DNA of 64,000 nt, from positions 39,627,836 through 39,691,835 of the forward strand of contig JARDVH010000084.1 of the NCBI GenBank assembly GCA_030324005.1, given 5' to 3'. Shown here one piece after another: positions 3,345-61,466 of the stretch; position 1 is the stretch's first letter, and every line of letters begins with the position of its first letter. This DNA comes from Negaprion brevirostris (lineage: Eukaryota). The translations under genes were made by a program, and so were the position numbers. The notes under the pieces were generated by a model. That model ran no database searches. It was not told where the DNA came from and saw nothing but the letters and a program-made list of their open reading frames with translations.

Positions 3345-5686
3345 ATGGTAGCCTGGTGGTTCTGTTAGTGAAGTAGCAAACCAGAGACCTAGACTAATGA
3401 CTTGGAAACATGAATGCAAATCCCACCACAACAGCTGGGGAACTTAAATCTAATTAAATACATCTGCAATTAAAAAATTAGTAGCAGTAGTGACATGAAG
3501 CTACCGGGTTGGCATTAGCTACCAATCTGGATCCCTAATGTCCATTAGGAAAGGAAATCTGATGTCCTTACCTGGTTTGGTCTACATTTGGCTTCAGATC
3601 CATAGCAATATGTTTGAATCCTAACTGCTGTTGAAAGTCAAGCCACTCAGTTATATTAGAACTGCGATGAAAAGTGTAAGAAGAAGAAAATAGGATGCAT
3701 CACCCAATGCTAAAGAGTGTATTCAGGCGGAGGATGTTCAATGTCCATCACCAATAGTAGCTTGGTAACACCACTAATGAATAAGATGGCTGCGTCCTGA
3801 TGAACAGACATGTTAGGCTGGGTCCACAGTGCATGATGACAGAACCAACGGAGGGAGAAACCTACATGAACTCATCCTTACCAATCTACCTGTCACAAAC
3901 GTGTCTATTCATGACAGTCTTTGTGGAGACCAAAGTTAAATCTTGACTCTAAAGCCATCACCATCTCCATGCAAACTACGGTAGATTCAGAACAGATCTA
4001 GCAGTTAATAGCTGGCATGTATGAAGCACTGTGTGCAATCAGCAGCAGAGGAATTGGTTTCCACCACAATCCGTAACCACACAGCCTGGCATCTTTCCCA
4101 CTCTACCATTACCATTAAGCAGGGGAATCAACCCTGCTTCATTGAAGAGTGTAGAAGTGCAAGTCAAGTATAGCTAAAATGAGGTGCCAACCTGGTGAAG
4201 CTACTGTACAGGACTACATGCATACTAAATGGTAGAAAAAGCATGATATAGGCAGAAATAAGCAGTCCCTCAACCAACAGATCAGGTGAAAACTCTACAA
4301 ACCTATTTACATCTAGTTGTGAAAAGCGGTGGACAATGAGGACGTTCCACAAACATCCCCATTCTGAATGATGGTACAGCCAAGTATATCAATGTAAAAG
4401 TCAATGCCAATACGTTTGCATTCGCCTCAGACAAATGGATGAACAATCACAGTCGCTTCCAAGAAGCATCATAGAAGCCATCCTTCAGTCAACTCAATTC
4501 ACTCCACATATCAAGAAATGTCTGTGTACACTGGGTATAGAAAGGTTTATGGGCCCTGGCAACATTCCAACTGGAATATTGAGGACTTGGGCTCCAGAAC
4601 TAGCCTGGCCTCCAGCCAAACTGTTCTAGGACAGTTACAACACTGGCTTCTGCCCAAAAATGTGGAAAATTGCCAAGTATGTCATGTCCACAAAAAGCAA
4701 GACAAATACAGCTCAGCGAATTGCTTCCTCATTCGGTATCCATCAATTACCAGCAAAGTGATGGAATATGTTATTGAAAGTGTTAGCAAGTGACAACTAC
4801 TTGTAAGTAACTTATGCGACTACACTCAGTCTAGGTTTCATTGGGATCATTCAGCTCCAGACCTCCAGGCCTTGATGAAAATATGGACAAAAGGGATGAA
4901 TTCTAGAGGTGTGAGGAGAAAGATTGCTCTTGACAGAAGAACATAGAAGCTAGAAACAGGAGTAGGCTATTCAGCCCTTCAAGTCTGTTCTCCCTTTCAC
5001 TTTGATCATGACTGATCATCGAATTCAATATCACGATCCCCTCTCCCCCCATATCCATTGGTCCCTTTAACTCCAAGAGCTATATCTAAATTCTTCTTGA
5101 AATCAGACAATGATTTGGCCTCAACTACTTTCTGTGGTAATGATTTCCACACATTCACCACCTTCTGGGTGAAGAAATTTCTGTTCACTTCAATTCTAAA
5201 TGTTTATCCCTTATCCTCAAACTATGGCCTCTAGTTCTGGACTCCCCCAGCATTGGGAACATTCTTTCCAAATCTACCCTCTCTAACCCTGTTAGAATTT
5301 TATAAGTTTCTATGAGATCCTCTCTCACTCTTCTAATCTCCAGTGAATATAATCCTAACCTACTTAATCTCTCCTCATATGACAGATCTGCCATCCCAGG
5401 AATCAGTCTGGAAAGCCATCAAGGCAGCATGTGACCAAGTGTGGCATCAAGGAGCCTTCGTAAAATTGAAGTCAACGGGAATCAGAAGGAATATTCTCCA
5501 CTCATCTAGGTCATACCTAACATGAAGCAAGATGATTGTTATTGGAGATACATCACTTCAGTCCCAGAACATTGATCCAGGTTCCTCAAGGTAATGTTCT
5601 AGGCCCAACCATCTTCAGCTGCTTCATAATGACCTTCCCTCCAACACAAGATCAGAAGTGGGGTTGTTCACTGATGATTGTACAGT
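3345..5686 (+). mobile_element. tRNA-headed CR1/L2-group LINE, decayed and internally deleted, interrupted by a CR1 at 4934-5417
   Basis: Head homologous to 11872, 30527 and 60750. RT motifs MGPGNIPTGILRTWAPELA, HKKQDK, IKAACDQVWHQG, PQGNVLGPTIFSCF..DLPS, FTDDCT. Confidence 0.85.
4934..5417 (-). mobile_element. CR1 3' end inserted into the LINE RT
   Basis: LSYEERLSRLGLYSLE..RGHSLRI..FFTQKVVNVWKSLP. The host resumes at ctcttgaca|catcaaggcagc. Confidence 0.9.
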
Positions 5687-8858: not shown

Positions 8859-9031
8859 TTACGAGGTCTTACAACACCAGGTTAAAGTCCAACAGGTTTA
8901 TTTGGTAGCACAAGCTCCTTCTTCGCGATTCACTTAAAGATGGAGCGACACTCCGAAAGCTTGGGCTACCAAATAAACATTTGGACTTTAACCTGGTGTT
9001 GTGAGACTTCTTACTGTGCATTTCTACATCA
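8859..9031. mobile_element. Penelope family A inverted terminal pair
   Basis: acaacaccaggttaaagtccaacaggtttatttggtagc ... gctaccaaataaacatttggactttaacctggtgttgt; exact 12-bp TSD tgggagatagag at 8847-8858 and 9032-9043. Confidence 0.85.
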
Positions 9032-10729
9032 TGGGAGATAGAGGGCATGGCTGAGGTACTATATGATCTCTTTATTAAGGAAATAAGATGCATAATCACA
9101 ACGAAATGGGTGGTAATTGCAAGATTGGATGGGCTAAAATGTGAAACAACTATTAGAAAGGCTGGCTATACTTAAAGTTAATCAGTAGCCAGGATCAAAT
9201 AGGATGCATCCAAGAACACTTGAGGAAAGTAAGTCTGGAAATTGCAGAGACATTGGCTAAACTCCTCCAGTACTCCTTGGGCACAGGGGTGGTACCAGAG
9301 GATTGGAAAGTTGCAAACATTACATCCATGTTCAAAAAAAGGGTGCAGGACAAACACATCAACTGCAGGCCGGGCAGTTTAAACTCAGTGTGGGGAAACT
9401 TTTACAGATGATAATCTAGGACAAAGTTAAGTCACTGTGCAGGGCAAGGCGAAACAATAGTTATCAAAGTTTATGGGAACTTGGGCTTTACAACTAGAGG
9501 AAAAGGAAACAAAAGCAAAGGAGCTTTTGAAATTTTAGCGACTGAAATACTGCAGTCAATTCTGGACACCACTCTGTAAAAGGAATGTGAAGGTTGTAGA
9601 GAGGGTGCAGAAAAGACGTACAAGAATGTTACCAGAGATGAAAGCCTTCAGTTATGTGGATGGATTGGAGAAGCTGGGACTTTTCTCTTTAGAAAAGAGA
9701 AAGATGCAAATAGATTTGATACGAGTGTTCAAAATCACAAGTCAGCTGGACAGAATAGCGACCCATTCCTGTTGGCGGCAACATGGAGAACCAGAGGGCC
9801 CTTGTTTAAGGTGATGTCAGAAGAGACAAATCAAAGTGAGAGCACATTTAAAAGTTTGAAAAGATTAGATGGAACTCATGTTCACACACATTGCAGCATT
9901 GGCATTGGAAACAATAGATCCTCTCAGGGGGTGGCGGGATTTTACAGTCTTGCTCAGGTGAGACCGGAAATTTCTGCCCAAGGTCAACGGAGATTTCCAT
10001 TGTCAGACCCTCACCCCTGCTGAGATCCGGCCAGTGAGTCAATTTTTTCCATTAAGGTGCACGTCCCAGTGGCTGCTTTGTAACACCAGCAAAGAAATGG
10101 GTGTCAGAGGACAGGAAATATTGGGGAACTGAGAAAATTAGCTTAAAAATAAACAACATATGAGGGCTAGATTCTGAAATACATCCAAAATACATATTAT
10201 AGCATAATTTCAAATAACTTTGATGTGATTTTATTCAAAACTCAATCTTTAAAGTTAAACTTTGACAACTCCGTCATGTAGTTAGGTTTGATCATAAATA
10301 ATAGTGAGTCAATAAGCACACCTCCTGTGATTACTTTAAAAAAAAACACACATTTGCAATCCCCCTTGCCCAAATATAGCTTCAGTTTTTTAAAAATCTT
10401 CACAAAGGATGTACCATTTAAGTGATTACCTCAATTTAAATTGACATGCATCTCCTATTAAATGCATATGGTACCAATTGCAATGTCTTCCTCCTGCAAG
10501 CTTTCTGTCTCCAAGTGACCTGTGGTCAGGCATCTCCTGCTAGCATTCTGCAACAAGGTGTAAAATGAACAGTTGGGGTTACCACAACTCCTTCTCCGTT
10601 GGCCAATATTTTGGTTCCATTTCTTTCCCAGTGCCTGCACACTGAGCAGGAATGAAGAATTGGAGCAAGGGCAAATGTTTAATAGGAATAGATTTAAATA
10701 GCATGCATTAATAGAGAACATCAGAGATT

Positions 10730-11871: not shown

Positions 11872-13297
11872 GGGAGGCAGTGGATGTCGTGGTATTACCA
11901 CTTAACCAGCAATCCAGAGAGACAGGGTTAATGCTCTGGGATATGGGTTCAAATTCCACCTTGGCAGCTGGTAGAATTTAAATTCAACTAACAAAAAATA
12001 TGAAATTAAAAGCTGGTCTCAGTAATAGTGAGCAGCAAACCATTGCCAATTGTCAGAAAAATCCATCTGGTTCACTAATGTCCTTTATGCTGTTCTTCCC
12101 TAGTCTCATCTGCATGTAACTCCAGACCCACAGTAATGTTGTTGACTCTTAAAATGCCCCCTGAGATGGCCTAGAAAACCACTCAGTTGTATCAAACAGC
12201 TGCAAAGACTAAAAGGAATGAAACTGCACAGATCACCCAGCACTAGAAATGACAATGGCATGCCCAGCCCCGTAGATTCCACAAAGCTCTCCATATTAAC
12301 GTCTGGAAGTTTGTGCCAAAATTGGGAGAGCTGTCCCATAGATCAATTAAGCAATAGCCTGACATAATCATGCTCATGTAATAATGCATTACAGATAATG
12401 TCCCAGAGACCATCTGTGCCATCCATGTGTATGTCCTGTCCCAATGGCAAGCCTGATCCAGCAGAGATAGCAACACGCTATATACAGTTAGGCAAGAGAT
12501 GCCCTGGCACTCCTTAATATTGACTCTGAACCCAATGAACTCTCATGGTAGCAGGTCAAACATGGGCAAGGAAACCTCCACCTGGTTACCATCTATCCTC
12601 AGCTGATAAATGAGTACTTCTTCACACTGAATATTATTTCAAGAAAGCACTGAGGATGGCAAGGACACAAAACATGCTCTGGGTGGGGAAGTGGGGGGAT
12701 GGGGTGTAGGGTCTTCAAAGTCCACCACCAGGAGTGACTTGGTCACATCACTTTAACCAAGTGGATGAGTTGTAAAGAACATAGCTGCTGGACTGTATTT
12801 GTGGAAGGTGTTGAGATAATCAGGATGAGGGAAAATCTACTTGACCTCGTCCTCACCAGTCTATGGGTCACAGGTGCATCTGTCCCTAAGAGTATTGGAC
12901 CACCACGCAGTTCTTTACATTGAGGATATCCTCCATTGTGTTATGCAGTACTACCACTGTGCAAAATGGGATTGATTTGGAACAGATGAAATAACTCAAA
13001 ACTAGGCATCCTTGAACTGCTATGGATTATTAGCAGTAGAATTGTATTCAACCACAATCTCACAGCCTGGTGTAGTCCCACTTCGTTACCATCAAGCCAG
13101 GGGATCAACCCTGGTTCAATGAAGAATGCAGGATGGCATGCTGGGTGCAACACCAGGCATACCTAAAATGAGGTGGCAACCCAGTGAAGCTACAACACAG
13201 GACTACCTGCATGCCAAGCAGCGGAAGCAGCATACGATAGACAGAGCTAAATGATTCCCACGGCCAGCGGATCAGACCAGAACTCTGTTGCACTGCC
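11872..13297 (+). mobile_element. tRNA-headed LINE, 5' part: head followed by APE endonuclease
   Basis: B-box GGTTCAAATTCC near 11946. From about 12295: INVWKFVPKLGELSHRSIKQ*PDIIML (APE N-terminus). Downstream sequence is homologous to 3850-4300. Confidence 0.85.
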
Positions 13298-13960: not shown

Positions 13961-13985
13961 TAAAATTCTACCCTCTGTGATCTGG

Positions 13986-14324
13986 AAATCATAGAAACTC
14001 TACAGTGCAGAAGGAGGAGGCCATTTGGCCTATCAAGTCTGCATCGACAACAATCCCACCCAGGCCTTATCCCCACAGCCCCACATATTTACCCCACGAA
14101 TCCCTCTAACCTAGGCATCCTGGGACACTAAGGGACAATTTAGCATGGCCAATGCACCTGCACATCTTTGCACAGTGGGNNNNNNNNNNAGGGCACCCTG
14201 AGGAAACACATGCAGACGTGGGGAGAAAGTGCAAACTCCACAAAAGACAGTGACCCAAGCTGGGCATCAAACCCAGGTCCCTGGGGCTGTGAGGCAGCAA
14301 TGCTAACCACTGTGCCACCATACC
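13986..14324 (-). mobile_element. HE1-type V-SINE (tail A)
   Basis: Reverse complement ggtggcacagtggttagcattgctgcctcacag... ending gcactgtagagtttctatgatt. Confidence 0.9.
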
Positions 14325-15751
14325 ATCTTAAGCTAGTACTTTCAAAAGAGGAAGGCAGGAAAAGGGATATTTTCCTACCAAGCATGAAGAGGTTAACAAT
14401 TCAGTTGAATATTCAAAAGATAGAATGATTACCTGCTTACACTGATCTTCAACTCTCATCAGACAGGAGAGGTTTTACTGTTTCTTTTATACTCCCATTT
14501 AGAATATAAACACTGTCATTTAATATTAAAGACTGAAATAAACTGTTACTAGTTGTCAGATAGACCATTGCTTGCTCAGGTGTTGTGAGCAGTCTATGTG
14601 TATCACAAAGTGCATTTAAAAGGCAGCCAACTCCAGCTAAAGTTACAATGAAACAAATATAGACAGCCTTCATTAGCAGTAACTCGGCCAGATCAGCTAA
14701 ATGGTTCTTAATGTTAAGGTTTTACCATATGTCAGGATTTTGTTCTGGCTGGCAAACTGTTTAGTACTAGAGTGTTTGCATTCATTGATTTGCCAGGAAC
14801 AGTGTAAACAGCAATGTCTTGGAATTGAAAGTGTTTAGTTCTGGCAGCCATTTTGGGAAAGTCTATAAATAAGTGCATTTTGAAAATCCCTATCCATTTT
14901 AACAATGTAAGGTTGGCCCATGGCAACATAGAGAACTTGCATCNNNNNNNNNNTCAGGCCCAACTGTCCCATGCCAGTGTTTATGCTTCATACAAGCCTC
15001 TTCCCACCTCACTCGATCTCACCCAGTCAAAGTAACCTCTTTTTCTTCCTCACCTGGATTCCCCCTAAATATACCTAATGTCTTTGCCTCAATGACTCTT
15101 TGTAGTTGCAAGTTCCACAATTTCAACATTCATCAGGAAAGAAGCTTTTGGATTCATTAGTGACAAACTTATATTTACAACCCTGTGTTTTGGAACTTTC
15201 TGGTATCAGATATGTTTCGATGTTACAGCATTGATGCTTTTCAGTAGCTTTATCTTGCTGCAATTCTGGTTGATGACTTTTTTGAAAAAATTGTGAAAAA
15301 AGTAAGGACCAACAATTAGGATCTATGAACAAATAAGTGCCCATTTCTGCAACCATAAGGACCCATATTTCAACAGCAAGAAAATGTGCCAAAATGTACA
15401 CTATTTTCTGCTCCCCTTTCGCACAATTGACATGATAAATGTATAAGGACATTTACTGGATGGACATCCCTTTCTTTCATTGCATTAGGTAATCTCAAAG
15501 TCACAACAACTTTTGAAAATTTAACACCGTGCGTTATCTTTTCAATTACTTACATTACATTAACAAACACCATATTTAGAACAAGATTTGGATTTTTCAC
15601 CTCTGTTTCTTTTTAATTCAGCAATTCCCTCCTTCAAACGGCATAAGCAGGCTACTAATGCCACTTGAACCAATGGATAGTACATGCATAAGAAAAACGC
15701 AGGTCAAATTAGCAATCCATTTTCCTTCCCATCACAAAAGCAACATCAAAA

Positions 15752-26630: not shown

Positions 26631-26915
26631 GGGGTGGCACAACGGTTAACACTGCTGCCTCACAGCACCAGGGATCCAGGTTCGATTCTCAGCTTGGGTC
26701 ACTGATCGTGTGGATCTGCACATTCTCCCGTATCAATGTGGGTTTCCTCCAGGCGCTCCAATTTCCTCCCACAGTCCAAAAGATGTACTGGGTAGTTGCA
26801 TTGGCCATGCTAGATTCTCCCTCAGTGTACTCAAACAGGCGCCAGAGTGTGGCGACTAAAGGATTTTCACAGTGTTAATGTAAGCCTCCTTGTGGCACTA
26901 ATAAATAAGCCTAAA
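26631..26915 (+). mobile_element. HE1-type V-SINE (tail B)
   Basis: B-box GGTTCGATTCTC, V-domain, tail ttctccctcagtgtac..gtggcgacta..ctaataaataa. Confidence 0.9.
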
Positions 26916-29634
26916 CATAGGTGAGTGATCAGAATGTGGTGACTGGGGTAGTGGGTAAGGCTACTTGTTCAGTTGACAGCATATAACATTTTAAGATGCA
27001 TTCACTGACTTTGCAGCCATTACATTTCTTGCAGTACTGCATCCAGCTATTCATTGATAAATTCCTGTCACTGATCTCCTATTGCCTTCTCAACATGTGT
27101 CTGAAAGGCCTTTCTGTGTCTTCATGGACATTGATCATCTCTTGTCCTTTCCAGCTCCTCCACCAAGAGTGGTCTCAGAATGGTTGCAGGACATTCTGAA
27201 AGGAGAGGGTGAACAGCCAGTTGTCATGGTGCACATTGGGTACATGGGTTTAAACTAAAGATGAGGTTCTAAAAAGCAGAATATAGGGAGCTAGGAAGCA
27301 AATTGAAAAGTTGGACCTCAAAGGTAGTTATCTCAGGATCACTACCAGTGCCACATGCTAGTCAGAGTGGAACCAACAGGATATATAAGATGAACACATG
27401 GCTGAAAAGACGTTGTAAGGGGGAGGGTTTCAGATTCTTGGGACATAACGACTGGTTCTGGGGAAAGTGGAACCTGTACAAACTGGATGGGTTACACCTG
27501 GGCAGGACCAGGACTGATGTCCTTGGTGGGGAGTACTTGCTAGAGTGAAAGGTATTAAATTAATACGGCAGGGGCATAAGGTGTAAGGATTCAGAGCAGG
27601 AGGAATCAACAACAACAGAAAAAGACAACAAGGAGAATAATAAGTGATAGTTAGAGAACTCAAGGGATTGAGTCATATAAGAACACAGTAAAAAAAAATA
27701 GGAAAGGAACAAGGAACGTTAAAAGGACTACTTCAACACTAGGAGCATTCAAAATAAAATGGATGAAATAGTTGCGCAGATAGATGTAAAGGGGTATGAT
27801 ATAGTTGGATTACGGAGACATAGTTCCAAGGTGACCACATTGATACAATACTGAGGAATTATTAGCATGGATAATGTATAATCTCTATGGGTCGAGGTAA
27901 GAAACACCAAGGGGCAAAAAACATTCATGGGGCTGGTAGACAGACCACCAAACTTGTTGTAGTAATGTTGGGAAAAGCATTAGATAGGAAATCAGAGGTG
28001 CATGTGATAAAGAAACATCTGTGATTATGGGCAACTTTAATCTGTATGTAGATTGGCAAGGATAAATTAGTCATACACAAAAGAGGTGGAATTTCTGGAG
28101 TGCATACAGGATGATTTTCTGGAGCAATACTTTGAGGAAACAGCAAAGGAACAGGCCATCTTGGACTGGGTATTGTGCAGTGAGAAAGGATTAGTTGGCA
28201 ATATAGTTGTGAGAGCGCCCTTGGGGATGAATGACAATAATATGATAAGAATTCTTTATCAAGGTTGATAGTTAGGTAGTTGATTCTGAGACCTGGGTCC
28301 TGAATCTCAGTAAAGTTAACTATGGTATGAGGCTGAATTGGCCACAAGGGACTAAGAAACATTACTGAAAGTAAGGACAGGTAATGGCAGACATTCAAGG
28401 AGTTAATAGGCGAACTCGAAAAGTTGTTTATTCCTATTTGGCGCAAGAGTGGAAAGGGAACTGTGGCCAAACCATGGCTTACAAGGGAAATTAGAGGTAG
28501 TATTAGCTTCAAAGAAGGAGCATACAAATTGGTAAGAAAAAGCAATAGACTTGAGGATGGGAAGAGTTTAAAATTCAGCAAAGGCTGGCCAAGGAATTGA
28601 TGAAAAAGAGAAAAATAGAGGAACATATTTCTCCGACCTTGTCACCCCGAGTCAAGATCACACTGATCCTGAAGAATAGCATGCGGGTCTAAGAATCAAT
28701 TTCATGCCCAGTGCCAAAGAGTTTGTGAGCCATCTGGCCGCTTTCTAATGGCGCAAACTGGATCGCGCCCATGAAAGGCATGGGACCCATTAGCATGTTT
28801 AAAGTAGCATTTAAATATGCAAAACCTCTTCAAATTCCAGCACACGGAAGTCTCTGGCCTTTGGGCATGGTGCAACGGTGGCGTGAATCATTACTGATCT
28901 CCATGAGCAGAGACCTAGTGCGATGGTTAAGCCAAGGGGCTCAGAGGCCACAGAAGCCCCTGGGTATTCAGGGGCATGGCCAGACGGTGCTCGTTGGGCA
29001 CCTTGGATATGGCCAACGGACATCCTGGTGGTGTTAGCTGGAACTGCCAGTATGCAGGGACAGTGCATACAGTGTGGGGACTAATGATTGGGGGGGGGGT
29101 GAGGGGGGCAATGCAAAAAGGCAATGACAGGGAGACATGCAAGTGTGAATCTTGTTGAGCGTCATGATTGGGGGGAGATGCGTAATGTCAGGGTTCAGGC
29201 AGTGGAACCAATCAGGAGGGCCCCGATGCCCTAAGGCTGGCAACCTCTGTCAGGGAGGGGTTGGGGTATGTGTTGTCGATGAAGGGGTCCCAATGTCCGT
29301 GATGGGAGGGCAAGGGTCTCCCAGTGCACTGTGAGATCAGGGCATTCTTCCAAAACAGCGCCCGATCACTTTACAGCTGGACTCACCAGCGTGTTTAGGC
29401 TCCATCTCACACACACATACTTGAGTGTGAAACGTCTGTGATCCAGACTACACCAGGCAGACATCGCGGATCACCCTGATGTTCTAGCCGCTATGCCATC
29501 ATGGCCAATAACACCAGCATCAGCAAAGGCTTTCAACCAACACCTTAAAGCCTAGGCTGTGGGAAACTGTTGGTGATGACAGTTGGAAGTCTCACAACAC
29601 CGGGTTAAAGTCCAACAAGTTTATTTGATAGTAA

Positions 29635-29675
29635 ACCCACAAGCTTTCGGAATGCTGTTCCTTCGTCGGGTGAGT
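29635..29675 (-). ncRNA. Minimal type I hammerhead ribozyme motif in a Penelope fragment (about 29586-29680)
   Basis: ACUCAC-CCGACGA-A-GGAA(CAGCA)UUCC-GAA-AGCU-U-GUGGGU: 6-bp stem I, 4-bp stem II, palindromic loopless stem III. Confidence 0.65.
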
Positions 29676-30526: not shown

Positions 30527-30925
30527 GCAGAGACGATGGCCTAGTGGTATTATCGCTAGACTACTAATCCAGAAACTCAGCTAATCTTCTGGGACTCAGG
30601 TTCAAATCCTGCCGTGGCACGTGGTGAAATTTGAATTCACTAAAAAATTCTGGAATTAACAATCTACTGATGACCACGAAACCATTGTCAGAAAAACGCA
30701 TCTGGTTTAATGTGCTGTAGGGATGGAAATCTGCTATCTTTGCTTGGTCTGGCCTACATGTGACTCCAGAGCTACAGCAATGTGGTTGACTCTCAACTGC
30801 CCTCTGAAATGGCCCAGCAAGCCACTCCATTGTATTAATCACTACAAAGTCAAGGGCAACTTGGGATGAGCAAGAAATGCTGACCAGCCAGTGACGCCCA
30901 TACCCTACAAACAAATAAAAAAAAG
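30527..30925 (+). mobile_element. Complete tRNA-derived SINE: head of the tRNA-headed LINE plus a short 3' tail
   Basis: A-box TGGCCTAGTGG (30537), B-box GGTTCAAATCC (30599), shared body, tail caagggcaacttgggatgagcaagaaatgctg, A-rich end. Confidence 0.9.
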
Positions 30926-31001: not shown

Positions 31002-31048
31002 AGATACCAAATAAACCTGTTGGACTTTGACCTGGTGTTGTGAGACTT
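31002..31048 (+). mobile_element. Penelope family A micro-insertion
   Basis: taccaaataaacctgttggactttgacctggtgttgtgagactt between exact 10-bp repeats cttaaagggg (30992-31001, 31049-31058). Confidence 0.8.
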
Positions 31049-31193
31049 CTTAAAGGGGGGACAGCACTGAAGAAGCAGTGGGCCCCATAAATATTTAGCA
31101 AAATTAACCAAGGTGGCAAATTTAATCATTGCAGTTTTGTTAGGTAAGGTCAAAACAAAACTGCCATACAGCGCCCTTATTTGNNNNNNNNNN

Positions 31194-31562
31194 AGAATTC
31201 CATCACATTCCTGACTTGTGCCTTATGGATGGTGGACAGGCTTTGGGGAATCAAGAGGTGAGTTGCTCACTGAAGTATTCCTAGCCTCTGAACTACTTCC
31301 ATAGCCACTGTATTTATGCAGTGAGTCTAGCTGAGTCTCTGGTCAATGGTAACCCCAAGGTTAACAGTGGGAGATTCAGTGATGGTAAGACCATTAAATG
31401 TCAAGGGGTGGTGGTTAGAATGTCTATTATTGGTGATGATCATTGCCTGGCATTTGTGTGGCACACATGTTATTTGCCACTTGTCAGCCCAAGCCTGGAT
31501 ATTGTCCAGATCTTGTTGCATTTGAACATGGACTGATTCATTACCTGAGGAGTCATGAATGG
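31194..31562 (-). mobile_element. tRNA-headed LINE family, RT C-terminal fragment
   Basis: MQQDLDNIQAWADKWQITCVPHKCQAM..NLGVTIDQRL; homologous to 59862-60260. Confidence 0.75.
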
Positions 31563-32135
31563 CAGTGAATATTCTATCACAGTGTCTGTCACTGTGCCAC
31601 GCTCATGTAAACAGAAGAACTGGTGACTGGAGCACCATCTGAGGAATTGGTTCATTCCAATGTCTTTGAGAAGAAAGGAGGAACATGGGGAGTAAGAACT
31701 GACCAGGAAAAGTAATCAGTCCAAAAAAATATTTAAACAACAAACCAAATGAAATACTGCGATGAAATGCCATTCCATCTTATCAAGAGTCAAACCTCGT
31801 TACTTACTGTTGGTAAGTTCATCACTACGGTTGCACTTGGACAACAATGTATTTACTTTTTACAGAATTTTTGGCTGCAATATTGCATTGGGTCAATCTG
31901 CAGCAAAAATTCACATGTAAAATGGTCACAGCCATTCGTAGCTTAAGATGCACTTTAGGCACCTTAACTGGAAATGAACACTGACATTACTGAACTATGT
32001 AAATTGACATTCTGCACTTGTACCTTTGGAACATAGTGTCTGCCAGCGTGACACTGGGTCAGCCACTAACCCAGAGAGCCACAGCATGAACACTCCAGAA
32101 GCTTGCTAAAGCAGCAAAGCATCCAAGATACATCT

Positions 32136-32215
32136 TTTTTTATTTTTATTCATTCATGGAACATGAGCATCGCTGGCTGGCCAGCCTTTACTGCCCATCC
32201 CTAGTTGCCCTTGAG
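32136..32215 (-). mobile_element. 3' tail of the tRNA-headed LINE/SINE family
   Basis: Reverse complement tcaagggcaactagggatgggcagtaaaggctggccagccagcgatgctc..gaatgaataaaaa matches 30850-30925. Confidence 0.8.
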
Positions 32216-32996: not shown

Positions 32997-33310
32997 GGGG
33001 CGACAGGGTGGCACAGTGGTTAGCACTGCTGAATCACAGGGACCCGTGTTCAATTCCGGCCTCGGGTCACTGTGCGGAGTTTGCACGTTCTCCCCATATC
33101 TGTGTGGGTTTCCTTGGGGTGCTCCGATTTCCTCCCACACTTCAAAGATGTGCAGGTTAGATGGATTGGTCACGCTAAATTGACCCCAGTGTCAGGGGAT
33201 TAGCAAAGTAAATATATGAGGTGATGGGGATAAGATCTGGGTGGGATTGTGGTCAGTGCAGACTCGATGGGCGAACGGCTTCCTTCTGCACTGTAGGATT
33301 CTATGATTCT
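32997..33310 (+). mobile_element. HE1-type V-SINE (tail A)
   Basis: ggtggcacagtggttagcactgct...gcactgtaggattctatgattct. Confidence 0.9.
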
Positions 33311-36300
33311 AGGATTAGAAGCAGACAACACCTCAAACCTGTTCGCCATTTAATATGATCCTGGCTGATCTGTTGTAACTGCAACCTGGCCAAATGCAGA
33401 TAATTGGGAGTAGCCGGGAGATCATTATGACCGGCATGGACTGGTTGAGCTGAAAAGCTGTCTTGCTCTATGACTCAACCCTACGTTCCTGCCTAACCCT
33501 CGATACCTTTCATCCACTTGTTGATCAAGAGTCTATTTAACTCTGCCTTAAAAATGGTCAAAGACTCTGCTTACAGTGCCTTCTGAGGAAGAGAATTCCA
33601 AAGACACATGACCTTCTGAGGGAAAAGAAAATCTCATCTTGGTGTTAAATAGACAGCGCCTGACGTAGAAACAGTGAGCACTGGACCACTGTATTGGAGC
33701 ATATCCATACAAAGAGAATGAAGCTGTGTGATAGTATTTCAAACTCCACCCCTCACTTCATCATNNNNNNNNNNNNNNNNNNNNNNNNNNNNNNNNNNNN
33801 NNNNNNNNNNNNNNNNNNNNNNNNNNNNNNNNNNNNNNNNNNNNNNNNNNNNNNNNNNNNNNNNTGCACTCCAGTGCTCCAAAGCTGGACTCACTGGCAT
33901 GTTTAGACTCTGCCCCCCAGTACCAAACTCCCAGCTCCCCAAAAAAGTGACAGAGTGTAGGAGGATTGCATAGCAGAATGCATCTGACATCTGGCTCAGG
34001 TCACTCCATTATGACACTTAGTTCGTTTTTAGGAGAATTCCACCCACAGTACGAAAGTAAACCATTAGGGAACATAAAGATTGACTGTAAAAATTTCTAT
34101 AGATGTGTCAAGAGAAAAAAGTCAACAAAAGCGAATATAGGCTCCTTACAGTCAGATGCAGAGCAATTCATAGTGGGCAACAAAAAATGGTGAAGGAAAT
34201 AATTTGTATTTTGCTTCTGTCTTCACAAAGGAAGACATGAATAATGTATCCGAAGTTCTGAGAAACACAAGCTTTAGTGAGGGGCTGAAGAAAATCAGTG
34301 TTAGTAGAGAACTGGTTTCAGGGAAAGTAATGGGACTGAAAGCAGATAAATTTCCGGGGCCTGACAATCTTTATCCCAGAGTACTTAAGGAAGTGGCCCT
34401 AGAAATAGTAGAGTGAGTTTCCAAAATTCTTTGAATTCTGGAATGGCTCCTACAGATTGAGGGTTGCAAATGTAAGCCCGCTATTCAAAAAGAAAGGTAG
34501 AGACAAAACAGAGAACTCTAGGTCAGTGAGCCTAACTCGGTCATATGGAAGTTGCTACAATCCATTATTAAGGATTTCATAGTAGAGCATTTAGAAAGCA
34601 ACAGCATAATCAGACAAAGTCAGCATGGATTTACAAAGGAGAAATCGTGCTTGGCAAATTTACTGGAATTCTTTGAAGATGTAAGTAGTAGAGTTGACCA
34701 GGGAGAACAGGTGGATGTAGTTTATTTAGACTTTTGGAAGGTTTTAAACAAGGTCTTACATAACAGATTACTATTAAATGTTAAAGCACATAGGATTGAA
34801 TGTAGTGTCTCGAGATGGATAGCAGACAGGAAACAAAGAGTTAGAATGAATGAGTCTTTTTCAGATTGGCAGGCAGTGACTAGTGGGGTACCGCAGGAAT
34901 CTGTGCTAGAACCCCAACTGCTCATATATATTAATGATTTGGACAAGGGAACTAAATGTGTTACCTCTAAATTTGCAGCTGATATAAAGTTGGGTGAAAG
35001 GATGAGCTGTGAGGAGGATGCAGAGATGCTTCAGCGTGATTTGCACAGGCTGATTGAATGTGCATATGCATGGCAGATGCATTATAATGTGGATAAATGT
35101 GAGGTTGTCCATTTTGATAGCAAAAATAGAGAGACAGATTATTATTTGAATGGGTGTAAATTGAGAGAGGTGGATACTCAATGAGATCTTGGTGCCCTTC
35201 TACATCAGTCGTTGAAAACAAACATGCAGACACTGCGGGCAATAAAGAAAGCAAATGATACATTGGTCTCATTGTGAGAGGATTTGAGTATAGGAATAGG
35301 GATGTTTTATGGAATTGTACAGGGTGTTGATGAGGCCACAACTGGAATATTGTGCACAGTTCTGGTGCCCTTATATGAGGAAGGATATTTTTGCTATAGA
35401 GGGAGTACAGCGAGGGTTTACCAGGCTGATACCTGGGATGGTACGACTGTCATAGGAGGAGAGATTAAGTCAGTTAGGATCACGTGCCTTGAAGTTTAGA
35501 AGAGTGAGAGGGGATCTCATAGTAATTTGTAGGATTAGAGTGTAGATTCAGAAAGAATGTTCCTGATGGTGGGGGAGTCCTGAACTAGGGGTCACAGTTT
35601 TAAGATAAGGGATAATCCGTTTAGAACTGAAGTGAAGAGAAATTCCTTCACCCAGAGAGTAGTGAATCTGTTGAATACACTATCACACAAAGTAAATGAG
35701 GCCAAAATGTTGTGTGATTTCAAGAAGGGATTAGATATAGCTGTTAGAGCAGAAGAGATCAAGGGACATAAGGGGAAGGTGGAATCGGGATATTGAATTC
35801 AAAGATCAGCCATGATCATAATGAATGGCGGAGCAGGCTCCAAGGACCGAACGGCCTACTCTTGCTTCTATTTTCTACGTAAGAGCTCCCATGCAGCATC
35901 AGCAAACCTTGGTGCATTTCTCTATTCCACATTCAGTCTTTGTTGTTTGTTGCACAGAACTATTTCTGAGCTATGTTAGCACCTCCAGCAGTCACAATGC
36001 ACTTTCCCTTCAAGGGATGCAAATTGCTGAATTTAATTCATAGTGAGGAAGAGAAGAGTGGATCTAAGACTAGTATTTTAANNNNNNNNNNNNNNNNNNN
36101 NNNNNNNNNNNNNNNNNNNNNNNNNNNNNNNNNNNNNNNNNNNNNNNNNNNNNNNNNNNNNNNNNNNNNNNNNNNNNNNNNNNNNNNNNNNNNNNNNNNN
36201 NNNNNNNNNNNNNNNNNNNNNNNNNNNNNNNNNNNNNNNNNNNNNNNNNNNNNNNNNNNNNNNNNNNNNNNNNNNNATACAATTGTGCAAAGGCAGACTA

Positions 36301-36540: not shown

Positions 36541-37835
36541 TTTGATTTATTATTGTTATATGTATTAGTATATAATGAAAAGTATCGTTTCTTGCACGCT
36601 ATACAAAGCACACCGTTCATAGAGAAAGAAAGGAGACAGTGCAGATTGTCATGTTACAGTCATAGCTAGGGTGTATTGAAAGGTCAACTTAATGCGAGTT
36701 AGGTCCATTCAAAAGTCTGATGGCAGCATGGAAGATGTTCTTGAGTCGGTTGGTACATGTCCTTAGACTCTTTTTTTTCCCTACGGAAGAGTCGGTTGTC
36801 CTTGAGTCGGTTGGTACACCTCCTTAGACTTTTGTGTCCTTAGAATATGACCAGGATGCATGGGGTTCTTAATTATACTGGCTGCTTTTCCAAGGCAGCG
36901 GGAAGTATAGACAGTGTCAGTGAGTGAGAGACAGTTTTGAGTGATGGACTGGGCTTCATTCACAACCCTTTGTGGTTTCTTGCCATTTTGGATAGAGCAG
37001 GAGCCAAGCCAAGCTGTGATACAACCAGAAAAAATGCTTTCTATGGTGCATCTGTAAAAGTTGGTAAGGGTCAGAGCGGACATGCCAACTTTCATTAGTG
37101 TCCTGAGAAAGCAGAGGCATCGTTTGATTTTCTTAACGATAGTGTTGGCTACAGGGACCAGTAAGAAGTCTGAACACCAGGTTTAAGTCCAACCGATTTA
37201 TTTGATAGTTCGGTTGGACTTAAACCTGGCGTTGTCAGACTTCTTACTGTGTTTACCCCAGTCCAATGCCAGCACCTTTACATCATGACTACAGGGATCA
37301 GGACAGTTTGTTGGTGATCTGGATACCTAAAAACTTGATGCTCTCAACCATATCAACTTCCCCACCAGTGATGCAGACAGGGGCATGCCCTCCACTATGC
37401 TTCCTGAAATCGATGACTATCTCCTTCATTTTGTTGAATTGAGGGAGAGATTATTATTGTCACATCAGTTTTTTTGGATTTGCTATCTCTTTTCTGCACT
37501 CTGTCTTGTCATTGTTTGAGATCTGACCCACTGTGGTGGTGTCATTGGCAAACTAGTAAATTGTGTTGCAGAGGAATTTGACCACGCAGTCATAGGTTTA
37601 TAAGCAATATGGTAAGGTGCTAAGAACTCAGCCTTGAGGGCCACCAGTGTTGAGGATGATTGTGGAGGAGGTGTTTCTGCCTATCCTTACTGATTAGGGT
37701 CTGTGTGTTAGAAAGTTCAGGATCCAGTTGCCGCGGAGAGGAGGCCTAGCCCCAGGCCATGAAGTTTGGAGATGAATTTCTTAGGAATAATGGCATTGAA
37801 GACTGAGCTGTAGTCGATAAATAGGAGTCTGATAT
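36541..37835 (-). mobile_element. Rex1/Babar LINE 3' portion
   Basis: LTNFYRCTIESIFSGCITAW..QRVVNEAQSIT is the Rex1-type ORF C-terminus; (aatca)n tail at 36541. Confidence 0.85.
37162..37288. mobile_element. Penelope family A inverted pair inside Rex
   Basis: taagaagtctgaacaccaggtttaagtccaacc / ggttggacttaaacctggcgttgtcagacttctta. TSD ctacagggaccag (37149-37161) / ctacagggatcag (37289-37301). Confidence 0.8.
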
Positions 37836-39477
37836 ATAGGATTCAAGAAAATAGATTTCCAGAAATAGCTGTAAATCAGGATTTGGAAGTGAAGAGGAAA
37901 TTTGGGAAAACTACAATCACCAGGGAAGTGGTAATTAGCAAGTTGTTGGAACTGCAGGCAACAAGCTCCTGGGTCATGATGGACTTCATCCTTAGGCCTT
38001 AAAAAAAATGGCTGGTGATACAGTCGATGTGTTGCTTTTAACTTTCTAAAATTCCCTGGATTTGAGGAAGGTCCCAAAGAATTGGAAAATAGCAAATGTA
38101 AAATCAAAAAGGGAGGGGACAGAAAGCAGAAAACTACAGGCCAGATGGCTTAAAACCTGTCATAAGGAAAATGTTGGAAACTATTAACAAAAATGTCATG
38201 GCAAAAAACTGGGAAAAATTCACGGCGNNNNNNNNNNNNNNNNNNNNNNNNNNNNNNNNNNNNNNNNNNNNNNNNNNNNNNNNNNNNNNNNNNNNNNNNN
38301 NNNNNNNNNNNNNNNNNNNNNNNNNNNNNNNNNNNNNNNNNNNNNNNNNNNNNNNNNNNNNNNNNNNNNNNNNNNNNNNNNNNNNNNNNNNNNNNNNNNN
38401 NNNNNNNNNNNNNNNNNNNNNNNNNNNNNNNNNNNNNNNNNNNNNNNNNNNNNNNNNNNNNNNNNNNNNNNNNNNNNNNNNNNNNNNNNNNNNNNNNNNN
38501 NNNNNNNNNNNNNNNNNNNNNNNNNNNNNNNNNNNNNNNNNNNNNNNNNNNNNNNNNNNNNNNNAAAGTATGGTTGTAAAGTTTGCTGATGATACAAAGA
38601 GTGATAGAAAATTAAGTTGTGAAGCGGACATAAGGAGGGTACAAATGGACACAGAGAGGTTCAGCGAGTGAGTAAAGATCTGATAAATGGAGTATAATGT
38701 GGGAAAATGTGAAACTGTCCATTTTGGCAGGAAGAATAAAAAGGCAGCTGGATCTGGGTGCCCCAGTGCATGAATCACAAAAGATTAAGATGCAGGTACA
38801 ACAAGTAGTTAGGAAAATTAACAGAATGTTACATATTGTGGGGACAAATTGAATATAAAAGTAGGGAGCTTATGCTTCAGTTGTTCAAGACACTGGTGAG
38901 ACCATACAATGAGTACAGCATTGGTCTCCTTACTTAAGGATGTAAATGTAGTAGACGTAGTTCAGAGAAGGTTTAGTTAAGTAGTAATTGGAATGGGTGG
39001 ATTGTCTTATGAGGAGAGTGAGGACAAGCTGGGCTTGTATTCACTGGAGTTTAAAAGGTTAAGAAGCAACTTGATTGAAACATATAAACTCCTAAGGTAT
39101 CTTGACAGCATGGATGTGTAGAGGATGTTTTCTCTTGTGGAAGTATCTAGAATTAGGAGTCACTATTGGCTGGTGTAAACCTGTTGGACTTTAACCTGGT
39201 GTTGTGAGACTTCTTACTGTAAAAGTAAGGGGTCAGCCATTTAGAACAGAGATGAGAAGACAGATGGTAGTGAGTCTTTGAAATTCCTTTCCTCAAGCTT
39301 GAGACAGGTTCTCAATAAACAAGGGGGTTGAAAGGTCACCAGAAATAGGTGGCAGGTTACAGCCATCATCTTATTGAATGGCAGAGCAGACTCAAAGACT
39401 CAAGCGACCCTGTTCATAACTTGCATGTATATATTCAACTATTACTGATTCTACTTCTGGGCATAATGTTTTAACCT

Positions 39478-39612: not shown

Positions 39613-42578
39613 ATTATTAGAGGGAAAGAAAGATTGGGTTAAGAGGGAAACCGACAGAAAACAAAGAATAAAAACTGTAATTTTTAAAATCTAAAACAAG
39701 CTGAAGGAATGAAACTCTGCATTCTTAATTAGTTACTTTTTGGGCAAAAGGAATAGTTATTAACAATTATTACATCATTGTAGGGTACTTACCTTGTTAA
39801 TTCATGAAGTTTTCTGCAGCAAGTATAATGGGCAATTAATGTGCAATTGCAGCACCTTCATGAACCACACAGGCTGATTAAGGGCAAGATGCCATTTTCA
39901 TGCAGCTAACAACAAAGGAGCACAAATCACCAGCAATTTGAGGGAAGTTGAAATTCATGCACATTTCTTTCTTTTCGCATGTTCTTGGCTGACTAGCACA
40001 TTAATTATGATGTGCGTTACTCATACATTAGCCAGCAACATCTGAGCTCTGCAGAAATACAACTACAGAGTAGTCCAAAGATGCACTGGGGAACCAGGAC
40101 CCTCCCACCACTCCCAGAGGTTCCCAGGTAAGGATTTCAAGGAAATTGCCTGGGAAGTTCAATGCAATGGGCAATTGCCTTGCGCTGGGAACCAAAGCTG
40201 AAATGCGCTTTAAATCTGATTCTGACTGTCTTACATAATAGTTACCCATAAAATAAATTAAAACCACTTCTAGATTCTGAGTATCTGCGGTACTTGACCT
40301 CCCCAGACTCCCCACAGGCCCTTTGGGTGTCCCCCACACCACTACACCCGCATAAGACCCCATAGGAGCTCCCCGCTATACTTCAACTCCTTCCCTCCCC
40401 CTCACCTGCTGACCATGCCACCCCTATAACTGCAGGCACACACTTTCCACCTGACCCCCAACCACCCCCCTCTCCATTGACCAACCCCACCCACTTATGT
40501 TACAAACCTACCGTCTCCATGGATTGAAAGTGGTTGGACCTTTGAATTTACCTGGCTTGCAGCAGTTAGAGCAGTAAAAAAGGTGGTGTGGCCTCCTTAC
40601 ATTCGACTTTGCAGCCCTCAACTGAAGGCCTCAGGAGCATGCTGCCCAAAAAAGTTCTCATCAAACCTGGTCAGGCAAGGAGGTCAGGCAAGACCACTTG
40701 GATTTCGAGGTAGGAAACTAGAAGCAGAGTGTAAAACAAACTGCCACTTCACGGACATTCAGGTCCGTTGTTTTTCTCAGCTAAATCTGGCCCAATAACT
40801 CATTCACAGGCCCAAACTTTCACTTGGCATTAAGGATACTGTAAGTCTATATTTCCATTTGTGATGCTAACTTGCTTTATTCTTGGAACAAACTGTATGG
40901 CTTTCTTCAAACAAAGGAGACACAGAGTGAGCATAATTAATAAGAATTTCAGAAAATTTCTAAAACGGTTCCCAATATTTCACAGAAGCAAACCTTAATG
41001 AAATGTTAACAATCAAAAGAAGGCACTGTACTGAGAGTTCATGAATCACCAAGCACAGTTAATGAGAGGGTTGTTGAAAAAGAACCTAGAATTAACATAC
41101 TAAGACCTGAGAAGCATCCTTTGAAGAAAATTGTGTCACATTTAATCTGCATAATGGTCTAAATTTGGCATGTTATTCAGTAAAACAAGAGTCTGAAAAT
41201 GAACACCTTTTTTGTACCACTGTCAAAAATTATGTAGCACGCTATTGGATGTATTTTTGGGGTTAGTTAAGAGATTCATGACATAAAAATGGGAAATCTA
41301 AATTCTACAGTCTTATCAGGTCAGGTGGCAAAACAGAATTTCCATGCAATATTCCTCATTGACAATCATGATAAATTCTATTAAATATTCACTTGTAGGG
41401 CTAAATCTTACCAAAGAAAGTGCAGAGTGCCGTCTCTTCCTGAAAAACATGCCTGTTTTCTCTCCAGATCTTACTACACTGCCAAGAAAAATCAAGGGAG
41501 TGCAATTCACATCATCATGGGGGGGTCAGGGGAGGGCCTCAACACGCCAGCAAAATCTGGGTGCGCAGAGATTGGGTGCCATCTTTAAAGGGTACTCCAA
41601 TCATAACCTGAGTAAACCTCCCCCCCAACACAGAGGTCTTAGGGTCTTCTCCCACCCTGATCATTGATCCTCTCCCACCCCTCCCAACTTGCCCATTCTT
41701 CTCTCCCCCCCACAACCAAAGGCCATTGCCAGCATCCCCAGTTCCTCCATCCGCTCCTCCTGTCATCACCACATCTAAANNNNNNNNNNNNNNNNNNNNN
41801 NNNNNNNNNNNNNNNNNNNNNNNNNNNNNNNNNNNNNNNNNNNNNNNNNNNNNNNNNNNNNNNNNNNNNNNNNNNNNNNAAGGCCATTGCCAGCAGCACC
41901 AGTTCCTACATCCGCTCCTCCTGTCATCACCACATCTAACTGAATCATCTACCCCTCCCCTACTCTCCTCCCCAGCCGCCCATGAGGCTCCCTCTAGGGT
42001 CTGCCACTTGGTAGCTAGTGCCAGGGGAATTGCCAGGCTACTCTCCCCCGGGGTTGTACTTATCTCTGCATCCCTGGAGAGACCCCCACAACAGGATCAC
42101 GTCTAGGTGAACCTATTGTAAACCATGCCGGCGTGCAATTTCAGGCAATGGGTCAATGTCTGGTGAGGAGTGGATTATTTACATAAAAATCTATTCAAAT
42201 GCATGTAAAGCAGGTTTACACTCATTATGGGTGTGAACCTGATGATGTCGCCAGTGAGGGGGATTCAAAATTGCGAAGTAGCCGGCAAGAACTGCAACTT
42301 CCAGAATTTGAGCTCCCATTGGCACTTACACCAACAGCAAGCATGTGCTCAACATGCATCCCCACCCCCCGCCATTGTGTCACCTTTACCTTGGTCAACA
42401 GAAACTTCTGCACACATTTGTCCAAGATTATTTTGTAACAACATATTGCTTTATAACCATTCCAGACAATCTGAGGCTTTACTGCAGAAAATATTGTATT
42501 TTAACTTTACAATAATCAACTTGTAGTAACTGCAAACCCACAGGTTATTGAATGATTCTGTGTAAATCTTTTAAATTA

Positions 42579-44076: not shown

Positions 44077-44523
44077 GGGTGGCACAGTGGCACAGTGGTT
44101 AGCACTGTTGCCTCACAGTGCCAGGGACATGGATTCAATTCCAGCCACAGATGACTGTCTGTATGAAGTTTGCATGTTCTTCCCGTGTCTGCATGGGTTT
44201 CCTCCGGGAGCCTGGTTTCCTTCCATAGTCCAAAGATATGTAGGTTAGGGTGATTAACAGGTTATGNNNNNNNNNNNNNNNNNNNNNNNNNNNNNNNNNN
44301 NNNNNNNNNNNNNNNNNNNNNNNNNNNNNNNNNNNNNNNNNNNNNNNNNNNNNNNNNNNNNNNNNNCCGGGAGCCTGGTTTCCTTCCATAGTCCAAAGAT
44401 ATGTAGGTTAGGGGGATTAACAGGTTATGGGAATAGGGTCTGGGTGGGATGCTCTGTAAGAGAGTTGGTTCAGACTCAATGGACCAAATGGTCTCCTTCG
44501 GCACAGTAGGGATTCTATGATTC
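44077..44523 (+). mobile_element. HE1-type V-SINE (tail A) spanning a gap
   Basis: gggtggcacagtggcacagtggttagcact...gggattctatgattc. Confidence 0.9.
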
Positions 44524-54300: not shown

Positions 54301-54842
54301 ACTTAAGGAAGGATGTGAAGGTATTGAATAGAGTGCAGAAAGAATTTACTAGAATGGTTTCAGGGATGAGCGACTTTAATTATGAAGACATATTGGAGAA
54401 GTGTTCCATAGAGAAGAAAAGACTGAAAGGAAATTTGATATTCAAAATCATGGGGGGTATGGGCAGATCAGATAGGGAGAAACTATTCCTCTTCATGAAA
54501 GAATTGAGGATTAGAAACATTGGCAAAAGAAACAAAAACGTTATGAGAAATAACTTTTTCAGGCCGTGGGTGGTTTGGGTCTGGAATGCACTGCCTGAGA
54601 GTGCAGTAGAGGCAGGTTCAANNNNNNNNNNNNNNNNNNNNNNNNNNNNNNNNNNNNNNNNNNNNNNNNNNNNNNNNNNNNNNNNNNNNNNNNNNNNNNN
54701 NNNNNNNNNNNNNNNNNNNNNNNNNNNNNNNNNNNNNNNNNNNNNNNNNNNNNNNACCAGCCAATTGTCCATAAATCACTGGGATTTTAGATTTCTACAT
54801 CTTTCAAACAGAAAGTTACTGGCCTTGACCAGGATCATAACA
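51400..54842 (+). mobile_element. Probable LTR interrupted by a CR1
   Basis: aataaaa..tgaaatctttg at about 52035-52065 resumes at 54756 and ends ggatcataaca. Start not defined. Confidence 0.4.
52075..54620 (+). mobile_element. CR1 ORF2 (EN-RT-3'), containing a second CR1 piece at 53691-54190
   Basis: EDEVGQVDQLTIGEYLGD; GFLKGKSCLTCW; LNRVQKEFTRMVSGM..VWNALPESAVEAGS. Confidence 0.85.
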
Positions 54843-59861: not shown

Positions 59862-60260
59862 CAGTGGTTGCAGCCCCAGGACATCAAGGTAACACCTCTG
59901 CAAAAGTGTCCGAACCACCTTCAGCTGCTTCGACACTGACCTTCCCGACGTCAGAAATGTCACTTGCTGACAATTCTACATTGTTCAGCTCTGTTCGCAC
60001 TATTCTCTGATAACGAAGCGGCACTGCCAGCATTTCAAGAGCCAGACATCATCCCGAAGTAGCAAAGAAAATGGCTGTGATGTTCACGCTCCACAAATTT
60101 CAGCCAATGAATATCTCACACCGGAGAATGCCCAGCCGATGCCTTTTGACCTTCAATGGCACTGCCATCAGAGACTCCAGACCAGTAACACTTTAGGGTC
60201 ATCACTGACCAGCCACATCAACACCATAGCTAACAGAGCAGGACAGAGGCAGGGAACAGG
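59862..60260 (+). mobile_element. Older RT fragment of the tRNA-headed LINE family
   Basis: ccccaggacatc..accaccttcagctgcttc..tgaccttccc matches 5560-5640. Confidence 0.65.
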
Positions 60261-60310
60261 TTGACTGTGTGCAGAGGTTACACCTTATTGGACCAGGTGA
60301 AACTGACTTA

Positions 60311-60749: not shown

Positions 60750-61050
60750 GACATGGTGATATAGTGGTGAAGTCACTTGATTACTATTTCAGAGGCCCAG
60801 GCGAAAGCTTTGAGGACACAGGTTCAAATCCCATCACAGCTGCTGGCGGAATTTGAATTCATTCTAGAATTGAAAGTTAGTCTCAGTAAAGATGACCATG
60901 AAAATATTGTTGATTGTCATAAGATCTCATGTGGTTCACTCATACCCTCCAAGGAAGGAAATCTGCCATGCTTACCCATGTGACTCCAGACCCATAGTAA
61001 CATAGTTAACTCTTAATTGCCCTCTGACATGGCCTAGCAAATCACTCAGT
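60750..61050 (+). mobile_element. tRNA-derived head and body of the LINE/SINE family
   Basis: tggtgatatagtgg, B-box GGTTCAAATCCC, body gtgactccagaccc..gccctctgacatggcctagcaaatcactcag. Confidence 0.8.
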
Positions 61051-61466
61051 AGTTTACTTGTGAGCAGAAAACTTGGAGAGGTGTTTAAAATGCAAACTGG
61101 GCGCAAGATCTATGCCCTTCTGTACTTGGTATACGCTTTGCATCACCAGTGCATGACAGAGGAATTCCAGTCCCTCCCTTGGGATGGTTACCAAATTGCA
61201 TTCATAAAGTCATTGGAGATAGTTGCCAATCAACCCACAACCCATTGCCCCCCCCGGCTAGATTGTGACATACGCAGTATACAAAGAAGACAAAATGATT
61301 GACCAAAGAAAGTATACCAGCATTACCATTGTGCCTGTAAATGTAACTGCTTCTTAAAAATATATTTATATGGGATGATATTTAGTTATTTACTGATGTT
61401 AAATGAGCTATTTGAATTACAACTGAAATTTCACCTTTGTGAATCACATCTATGCTTACATNNNNN

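Follow-up and report, generated by a model that had tools for sequence, protein, structure and literature searches.

Can a LINE that encodes its own copying enzyme serve as a template for RNA polymerase III (Pol III)? This question is raised by a stretch of 64,000 nucleotides of the Negaprion brevirostris genome (assembly GCA_030324005.1, contig JARDVH010000084.1, positions 39,627,836 to 39,691,835, forward strand), here called the window, whose own numbering is used below. A preliminary description of its letters had noted copies in which a tRNA-like head and a shared body run into endonuclease (EN) or reverse transcriptase (RT) sequence, with no ORF1 and no TTTT on the sense strand, and had suggested selection for full-length Pol III transcription. 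By sequence comparison, these copies are decayed members of an abundant 3.3-kb LINE of sharks and rays that encodes its own copying enzyme. The matches identify the family as one already published, the elasmobranch Zenon LINE (CR1 group; PMC13343379; here and below, cited papers are represented by the available parts of their texts). The best explanation overall, and in our judgment a probable one, combines the Zenon head-body-ORF anatomy with likely Pol III transcription of the whole unit.

Copies of the element in the window

The copy at 11872-13297 (plus strand), which belongs to an older subfamily, opens with a tRNA-like head (11872..11960) carrying an A-box-like motif at 11880-11892 and a B-box at 11946-11954; the 5' end of the family is fixed here. 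The conserved body core follows at 12062..12201. It includes a hairpin at 12161..12186, of putative function, whose 7-nt consensus loop is anticodon-loop-like and has decayed in this copy. The leader (12199..12297) then runs up to EN motif I; it begins with a conserved GCT (12199-12201), which the consensuses place in the EN frame, and contains an out-of-frame ATG at 12218-12220. Decayed coding sequence for the APE endonuclease and linker occupies 12298..13297, with the copy ending near nt 1475 of the 3299-nt unit.

In a second plus-strand copy, head and body (3345..3705) pass into late EN, linker and RT (3705..4935) because a deletion has removed about 440 nt that include the beginning of the ORF. 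Nested in this copy is a CR1 3' fragment foreign to the element (4941..5420, minus strand, 90% identical to the CR1 consensus), so that CR1 family was active after the copy had landed; the RT core of the element resumes at 5421..5686. Further members are a short derivative (30527..30925, plus) made of head, body, 20 nt of leader and then the last ∼75 nt of the LINE with an A tail; an RT C-terminal fragment of the younger subfamily (31194..31573, minus, 87% identical to consensus); a 3' tail fragment (32133..32215, minus); a very old RT fragment (59910..60256, plus); and an older-subfamily copy of head and body only (60750..61053, plus).

Other repeats share the window. A second tRNA-headed SINE, which may resemble V-SINE HE1 of sharks, is present in many copies (60302-60624, 13983-14328, 26632-26916, 33004-33311, 44078-44523, and 63182-63469). 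A short MITE-like element with terminal inverted repeats of ∼50 nt occurs as several copies and solo arms (8859-9018, 1-94, 29579-29672, 31005-31053, 37159-37208, and 39176-39220). ARAGORN calls a tRNA-Ser at 9658-9748, which overlaps a dispersed repeat matching 54284-54401 and is probably a false call. The 60-nt direct repeats around 100-N gaps at 41719-41939 and 44204-44429 are likely assembly artefacts.

The family consensus and its relatives

A query of head and body against the 2.69-Gb genome gave 9,903 first-look candidates, 40 of which were scored. For subfamily A, a majority sequence scripted from fetched loci (106 fragments at 83% identity at least) yielded a consensus of 3,299 nt with a single ORF of ∼979 codons and one CpG-type stop. 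The consensus of the older subfamily B, built from 4 to 29 copies per consensus window, is 3,286 nt long and has the same layout; its copies are 77% identical to it. The unit runs from the tRNA-like head with its A and B boxes through a conserved body of ∼150 nt into one ORF for EN and RT, followed by a short 3' UTR and an A tail. Head and body come before EN motif I (nt 443), and the consensus has the catalytic motifs of both the APE endonuclease and the RT in place. A profile search matched PF14529 on a sister copy of 11872-13297 with a score below the curated cutoff. At the 3' end of the family there is a poly-A tail, and an AATAAA lies near it. The heads of A and B are 84% identical, their body cores 95%, their leaders 84%, and their ORFs 91%; given the last figure, the two are not independent replicates. 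No intact copy was found in the loci examined, in which the longest stop-free stretch was 426 codons, and inspection by eye of copies that retain both ends revealed no target-site duplications.

In an RT tree of 54 rows, the element stood apart from the CR1 of this genome and grouped with L161 and P0001 at 98/94; these references are single-ORF relatives with no family name, and the tree holds no named Zenon RT. Close protein matches (53 to 77%) came only from short fragments of shark or ray type and from contigs, full-length relatives being ∼35 to 42% identical, and scans for related loci gave no match in viral contigs or in the first metagenome scan. The family name comes from the published consensuses. 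A 16-nt body motif matches the seven elasmobranch Zenon rows and no others (PMC13343379 supplement); by eye, the first ∼400 nt of Zenon from CarCar, HypSab, RhiTyp, ScyCan, and SquAca have the same head, body, and leader; and the elasmobranch Zenon-1 entries, at 3,244 to 3,314 nt, have no ORF1 and end in poly-A, as here (PMC13343379).

Some individual loci have peculiarities of their own. Copies at L045, L011, L244, and L262 begin just behind or beside the 3' tail of a further family member, which hints at clustered or tandem insertion. The copy at L022 has an insert of ∼100 nt in its leader (locus ∼1890-1990, consensus position ∼400), and its 5' flank (frame from locus 6) holds a stop-free stretch of 265 codons that reads like a retroviral envelope transmembrane region.

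A fixed 5' end at a tRNA-like head

Does the element begin at its head? Among 29 loci chosen by a leader/EN query, a single alignment reached the head in 13 and the body in 13, and began within the leader in 3. When the 29 upstream flanks (28 distinct loci) were compared, just one pair had sequence in common, of 75 nt. Since the loci are collinear from head to ORF and their upstream flanks are unshared, the element begins at the head and has no ORF1. Dozens of loci, from both subfamilies, have the head-ORF junction at exactly the same base, and contigs in three other sequencing runs bridge body and EN. The join of tRNA-like head and body to EN/RT proposed in the preliminary description, and the constancy of junction that it had offered as a check, are thus borne out at many independent loci.

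How tRNA-like is the head? A- and B-box-like motifs are plain in it and are kept across both subfamilies and the published consensuses of five elasmobranch species. The consensus head folds as a tRNA under relaxed ARAGORN, but default ARAGORN does not call it a tRNA, and Rfam searches of the window and of one young head plus body gave chance matches only. The term tRNA head therefore stands as far as the promoter boxes and the relaxed fold go, and not as a tRNA call at default settings.

Depletion of T runs on the sense strand

The shortest sequences reported to terminate Pol III are TTTT and TVTTT, and TTT alone is weak (PMC8466645). Are such runs rarer in this family than expected? Six sense-strand segments were counted (11872-13297, 3345-4940, 5421-5686, 31194-31562 on the minus strand, 30527-30925, and 60750-61050; 4,357 nt in total). 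They hold no run of four or more T (T4+) and 30 A4+ runs; mononucleotide shuffles of the same letters gave a mean of 12.0 T4+ runs and reached zero in 0 of 5,000. The preliminary reading by eye, no TTTT and many AAAA runs in ∼4.3 kb, holds for these segments, but the interval 3345-5686 as a whole contains a plus-strand TTTT at 5298, inside the CR1 insert. Counting also agreed with the single TTTT reported for the old copy at 59862-60300 (it lies at 60144) and with a CR1 at 34046-35880 rich in TTTT, where there are nine.

Consensus A has 0 T4+ runs against 4.6 expected and 5 T3+ runs against 23.4, and TTTVT, TVTTT, and TTVTT are each absent against about 4.7 to 4.9 expected. For consensus B the figures are 0 T4+ against 5.5 and 10 T3+ against 25.7, with 1 TTTVT, 1 TVTTT, and 3 TTVTT against about 5.3 to 5.5; an early B consensus with thin coverage had TTTT at two sites, both gone once more copies were added. 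For A, C, and G, both consensuses have about as many runs as expected or more, and the depletion is specific to T and to the strand. Under synonymous shuffles that keep codon usage, TTT occurs 3 times against 12.5 (P = 0.0005), and the Phe codons of consensus A are TTC and TTT in a ratio of 16:2. The absence of T4 alone is not significant under the codon-usage shuffle (0 versus 2.15, P = 0.093); it gives P = 0.034 under a third-position model and P = 0.105 under a dinucleotide shuffle. By itself, then, T4 absence is weak with TT or codon usage held fixed, and the depletion of TTT carries most of the signal.

Real copies of A contain 0.55 T4 runs per kb (78 in 142.6 kb), and simulated decay gave 0.55 from a T4-free master and 1.50 from a codon-shuffled one. 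Real B copies contain 1.01 per kb (44 in 43.7 kb), against 1.2 in the simulation and 2.39 from the shuffled master. The A rate equals that of simulated T4-free decay, and the masters were therefore T4-free; this is not a separate proof of selection. T4 recurs strongly at a single site, in 20 of 65 copies, where C-to-T and G-to-A changes are equal, as in CpG decay. The same-genome control consists of one family, CR1, which has 5 T4 runs in its consensus against 5.5 expected and 4.1 per kb in its copies. Among 80 metagenome LINE loci, several of them redundant, 79 hold at least two T4 runs, the exception being 744 nt long with 1.5 expected; head or body similarity was found in none of the 80. 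The close relative L161 has an AUG start, 15 T4 runs, and no detected head, so the T-run pattern looks derived in this lineage. In sum, the controls suggested in the preliminary description left A and B at zero and CR1 at expectation, and neither T4+ runs at the expected rate, nor family sequence upstream of the head, nor an ORF1 was found.

Avoidance of self-cleavage at a TTTT/AA endonuclease target was rejected by reasoning, because it would hit both strands and sense-strand A4 runs are normal.

What could keep T runs out of a LINE? We think it quite likely that Pol III would make the full-length RNA and that masters with an internal TTTT or TVTTT would have lost their 3' end and left no offspring. 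The strongest competitor is an ordinary Pol II LINE that has captured a SINE as its 5' UTR, whether as a Pol II promoter or as a passenger, and that avoids U-runs for another cause, such as innate RNA sensing, premature Pol II 3' processing, or slippage. Such an element would agree with LINEs being generally Pol II transcripts (PMC10886601, PMC5786205), with the AATAAA, with dinucleotide frequencies that are low for both TT (0.75) and TA (0.60), with the nonsignificance of T4 absence under codon-usage shuffles, and with a head that diverges faster between subfamilies than the ORF does. It fits less well with a 5' end fixed at the head, with A/B boxes kept across subfamilies and five species, with the depletion of interrupted terminators (TVTTT) as well, and with the T4 runs present in the CR1 of the same genome and in 79 of the 80 outside loci; moreover, a capped RNA would be scanned onto out-of-frame AUGs, and an in-frame AUG is absent. 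We consider this Pol II origin unlikely.

Translation start and the body

If Pol III does make the RNA, where would translation begin? The consensus A ORF reaches its first in-frame Met only at residue 295, beyond the EN domain, and its first 55 codons include no CTG, GTG, TTG, or ACG in that frame. The 11872-13297 copy indeed has no in-frame ATG before EN, as had been noted from its letters, the ATG at 12218-12220 being out of frame. The combination of a tRNA-type promoter, no T-runs, and no normal start codon points to a likely protein-coding Pol III RNA. Since such an RNA would carry no m7G cap, ribosome recruitment and the choice of a non-AUG start near the conserved GCU would probably fall to the body.

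Of the copies that could be scored, 15 of 22 young ones and 1 of 4 old ones have this GCT, 117 nt upstream of EN motif I, in frame with EN, as do both consensuses. A and B differ by 3-nt indels between GCT and EN and by a 1-nt indel just upstream of GCT. Inspection of the published rows by eye places GCT in the frame of the downstream leader in four species, up to the EN motif in the stingray row, but not in the visible stretch of the three spiny dogfish consensuses. Just upstream of GCT is a hairpin whose 7-nt loop, of anticodon-loop form, is predicted to be complementary to four bases from GCT. A pattern built around this hairpin, defined post hoc, had three matches, each within the first 330 nt, compared with 0.10 matches per shuffled element, and one further possible loop pairing lies within the body. 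The body core folds no more stably than its shuffles (z = −0.4), and Rfam gave no IRES match for the window or for one young head plus body. An IRES-like start at the GCU is a plausible hypothesis. Elsewhere in the element, some 150-nt windows of the consensus ORF fold far better than shuffles (z to −6.0), exceeding the body.

Is there a precedent for such a start? Type 6 (dicistrovirus IGR) IRESs use an anticodon-codon mimic to initiate without an AUG (PMC10275262, PMC12221177). They comprise ∼150 to 190 nt before a non-AUG start and have GCU at the start region, as the element here would, and a comparable pairing between a stem-loop and the start region is predicted here (PMC10275262, PMC12221177, PMC3894237). 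In the viral IRES, GCU is the first codon decoded after PKI, whereas here it is the predicted pairing partner; of the three-pseudoknot layout with SLIV/SLV and L1.1, the sequence here offers the predicted loop-GCU pairing and the further possible loop pairing, and Rfam gave no match. Such IRESs in non-LTR elements are a speculation of PMC3894237, which calls the promoter of these elements atypical Pol II "or pol III." By analogy, a pseudoknot like that of type 6 IRESs would be the likeliest means of ribosome recruitment and start, a suggestion that we make tentatively and with less than even confidence.

Alternatively, the RNA could be a Pol III product that is translated from the out-of-frame ATG, with frameshifting or reinitiation afterward and no factor-free IRES. 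An ATG 95 nt upstream of EN motif I is found in most aligned copies; of 53, 37 have it in one shared frame that is out of register with EN, and 8 have it in frame. The out-of-register frame stays open for ∼35 codons and closes shortly after EN motif I begins, and the Met of outside relatives lies 26 to 30 codons before that motif. However, inspection by eye revealed no canonical slippery heptamer, the letters of the ATG read Asn-Glu in the EN frame, where the ACG variants of three copies are silent, and between GCT and EN the two subfamilies differ by indels in multiples of three, with the 1-nt indel falling just upstream of GCT. A start at this ATG thus ranks as improbable, a little behind the Pol II origin.

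Short derivatives

In the short copies, head and body are joined to the last stretch of the LINE at varied breakpoints (consensus nt 288, 289, 296, 297, 316, 318, 336, and 382). The 316 join is a main loose end in 7 of 8 public runs examined, and neighbouring joins occur in the eighth. Derivatives of 300 to 400 nt are short and non-coding, as SINE2 elements are, but the 3.3-kb coding long form does not fit SINE2. Together with the 20 nt of LINE leader kept in the 30527 copy, the varied joins fit repeated internal deletion of a LINE already bearing the head, which is how we would interpret the SINE-like copies. The short-copy data would fit whether or not the head first came from an older SINE.

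That the long form is instead a non-autonomous chimera, or repeated SINE insertions beside truncated LINEs, with an ORF that was never translated, is largely refuted and very improbable: head plus body are ∼100-fold deeper than the EN region in public sequencing runs, so that chance adjacency is conceivable, and no intact copy was found, but the junction does not shift by a base, the ORF of the consensus stays open and keeps its catalytic motifs, and the body-EN join is found both in contigs of other runs and in the published consensuses.

Relation to known elements

Term searches of the main text of PMC13343379 found no mention of tRNA, Pol III, or a start codon, and promoter type, T-run avoidance, an AUG-less ORF, and short derivatives were not seen for Zenon in the available parts of that paper. 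Hagfish and coelacanth Zenon differ from the element here in having an unrelated 5' start and T4+ runs within 400 nt (PMC13343379 supplement). Butterfly Zenon has a single ORF, a poly-A tail, and internally deleted derivatives of 5' and 3' ends, as here; Persaeus carries the butterfly Zenon 5'-UTR sequence and, unlike the derivatives here, has no tRNA homology or Pol III promoter (PMC6740152). SacSINE1 and the DeuSINEs share the plan of tRNA head, conserved body, and LINE-shared tail; there, head and body sit on the SINE, whereas in shark Zenon they sit on the coding LINE itself. As stated in the available texts of PMC5499810, PMC5786205, and PMC5804259, no conserved body has been found in LINEs, and SINEs cannot encode protein. 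Non-SINE retroelements with small-RNA-derived Pol III promoters are known as TRIMp3 (Cassandra, Helenus, Ajax), but these are short non-coding LTR derivatives of 311 to 1,263 bp (PMC10886601), and the element here is 3.3 kb long and coding.

Four motifs from the body had no match in the full-text literature searched. The body may resemble salmonid SlmI/RSg-1. By eye it has no likeness to the Meta alignment, and UCON3 was set aside as its identity on a match of just 9 nt. Identity with Deu/SacSINE1 was rejected on its unlikeness, by eye, to the printed Deu alignment (PMC7245038 supplement), which stands in for SacSINE1 itself. A Pol III-type autonomous LINE in sharks has no description in the open full-text literature searched.

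A proposed life cycle and its implications

How might the pieces work together? The tRNA-type head with its A and B boxes would drive Pol III across the entire 3.3-kb unit, and a master copy gaining TTTT or TVTTT would yield a truncated RNA, lose its 3' end, and leave no offspring. The uncapped RNA would use its body to recruit ribosomes. Copies would insert by target-primed reverse transcription, which is established LINE biology, and internal deletions would give rise to SINE-like passengers retaining promoter and tail. Counting against such a cycle, Pol III processivity is thought to restrict SINEs to 100 to 700 bp (PMC10886601). We regard the complete chain as doubtful when taken as a whole, that is, an autonomous retrotransposon bypassing both Pol II and the cap through a Pol III unit, a tRNA-mimic pseudoknot, a factor-free IRES, and SINEs made by deletion, across sharks and rays.

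As the sequence of the family is already published, what is gained is a mechanism and not a new repeat. The divide between LINEs and SINEs assigns Pol II to coding elements and Pol III to short non-coding ones, and a 3.3-kb coding element that avoids Pol III terminators would break this rule. Two testable questions are opened, namely the natural length limit of Pol III transcripts and the translation of uncapped cellular RNA, and a cap-free start behind a compact Pol III promoter would make a useful expression part. If the proposal is true, elasmobranch Zenon would provide a natural Pol III mRNA bearing a factor-free IRES that is encoded in the chromosomes, and a LINE that yields SINEs directly, and with it a route for the origin of SINE heads and conserved bodies, which the available SINE literature calls unresolved.
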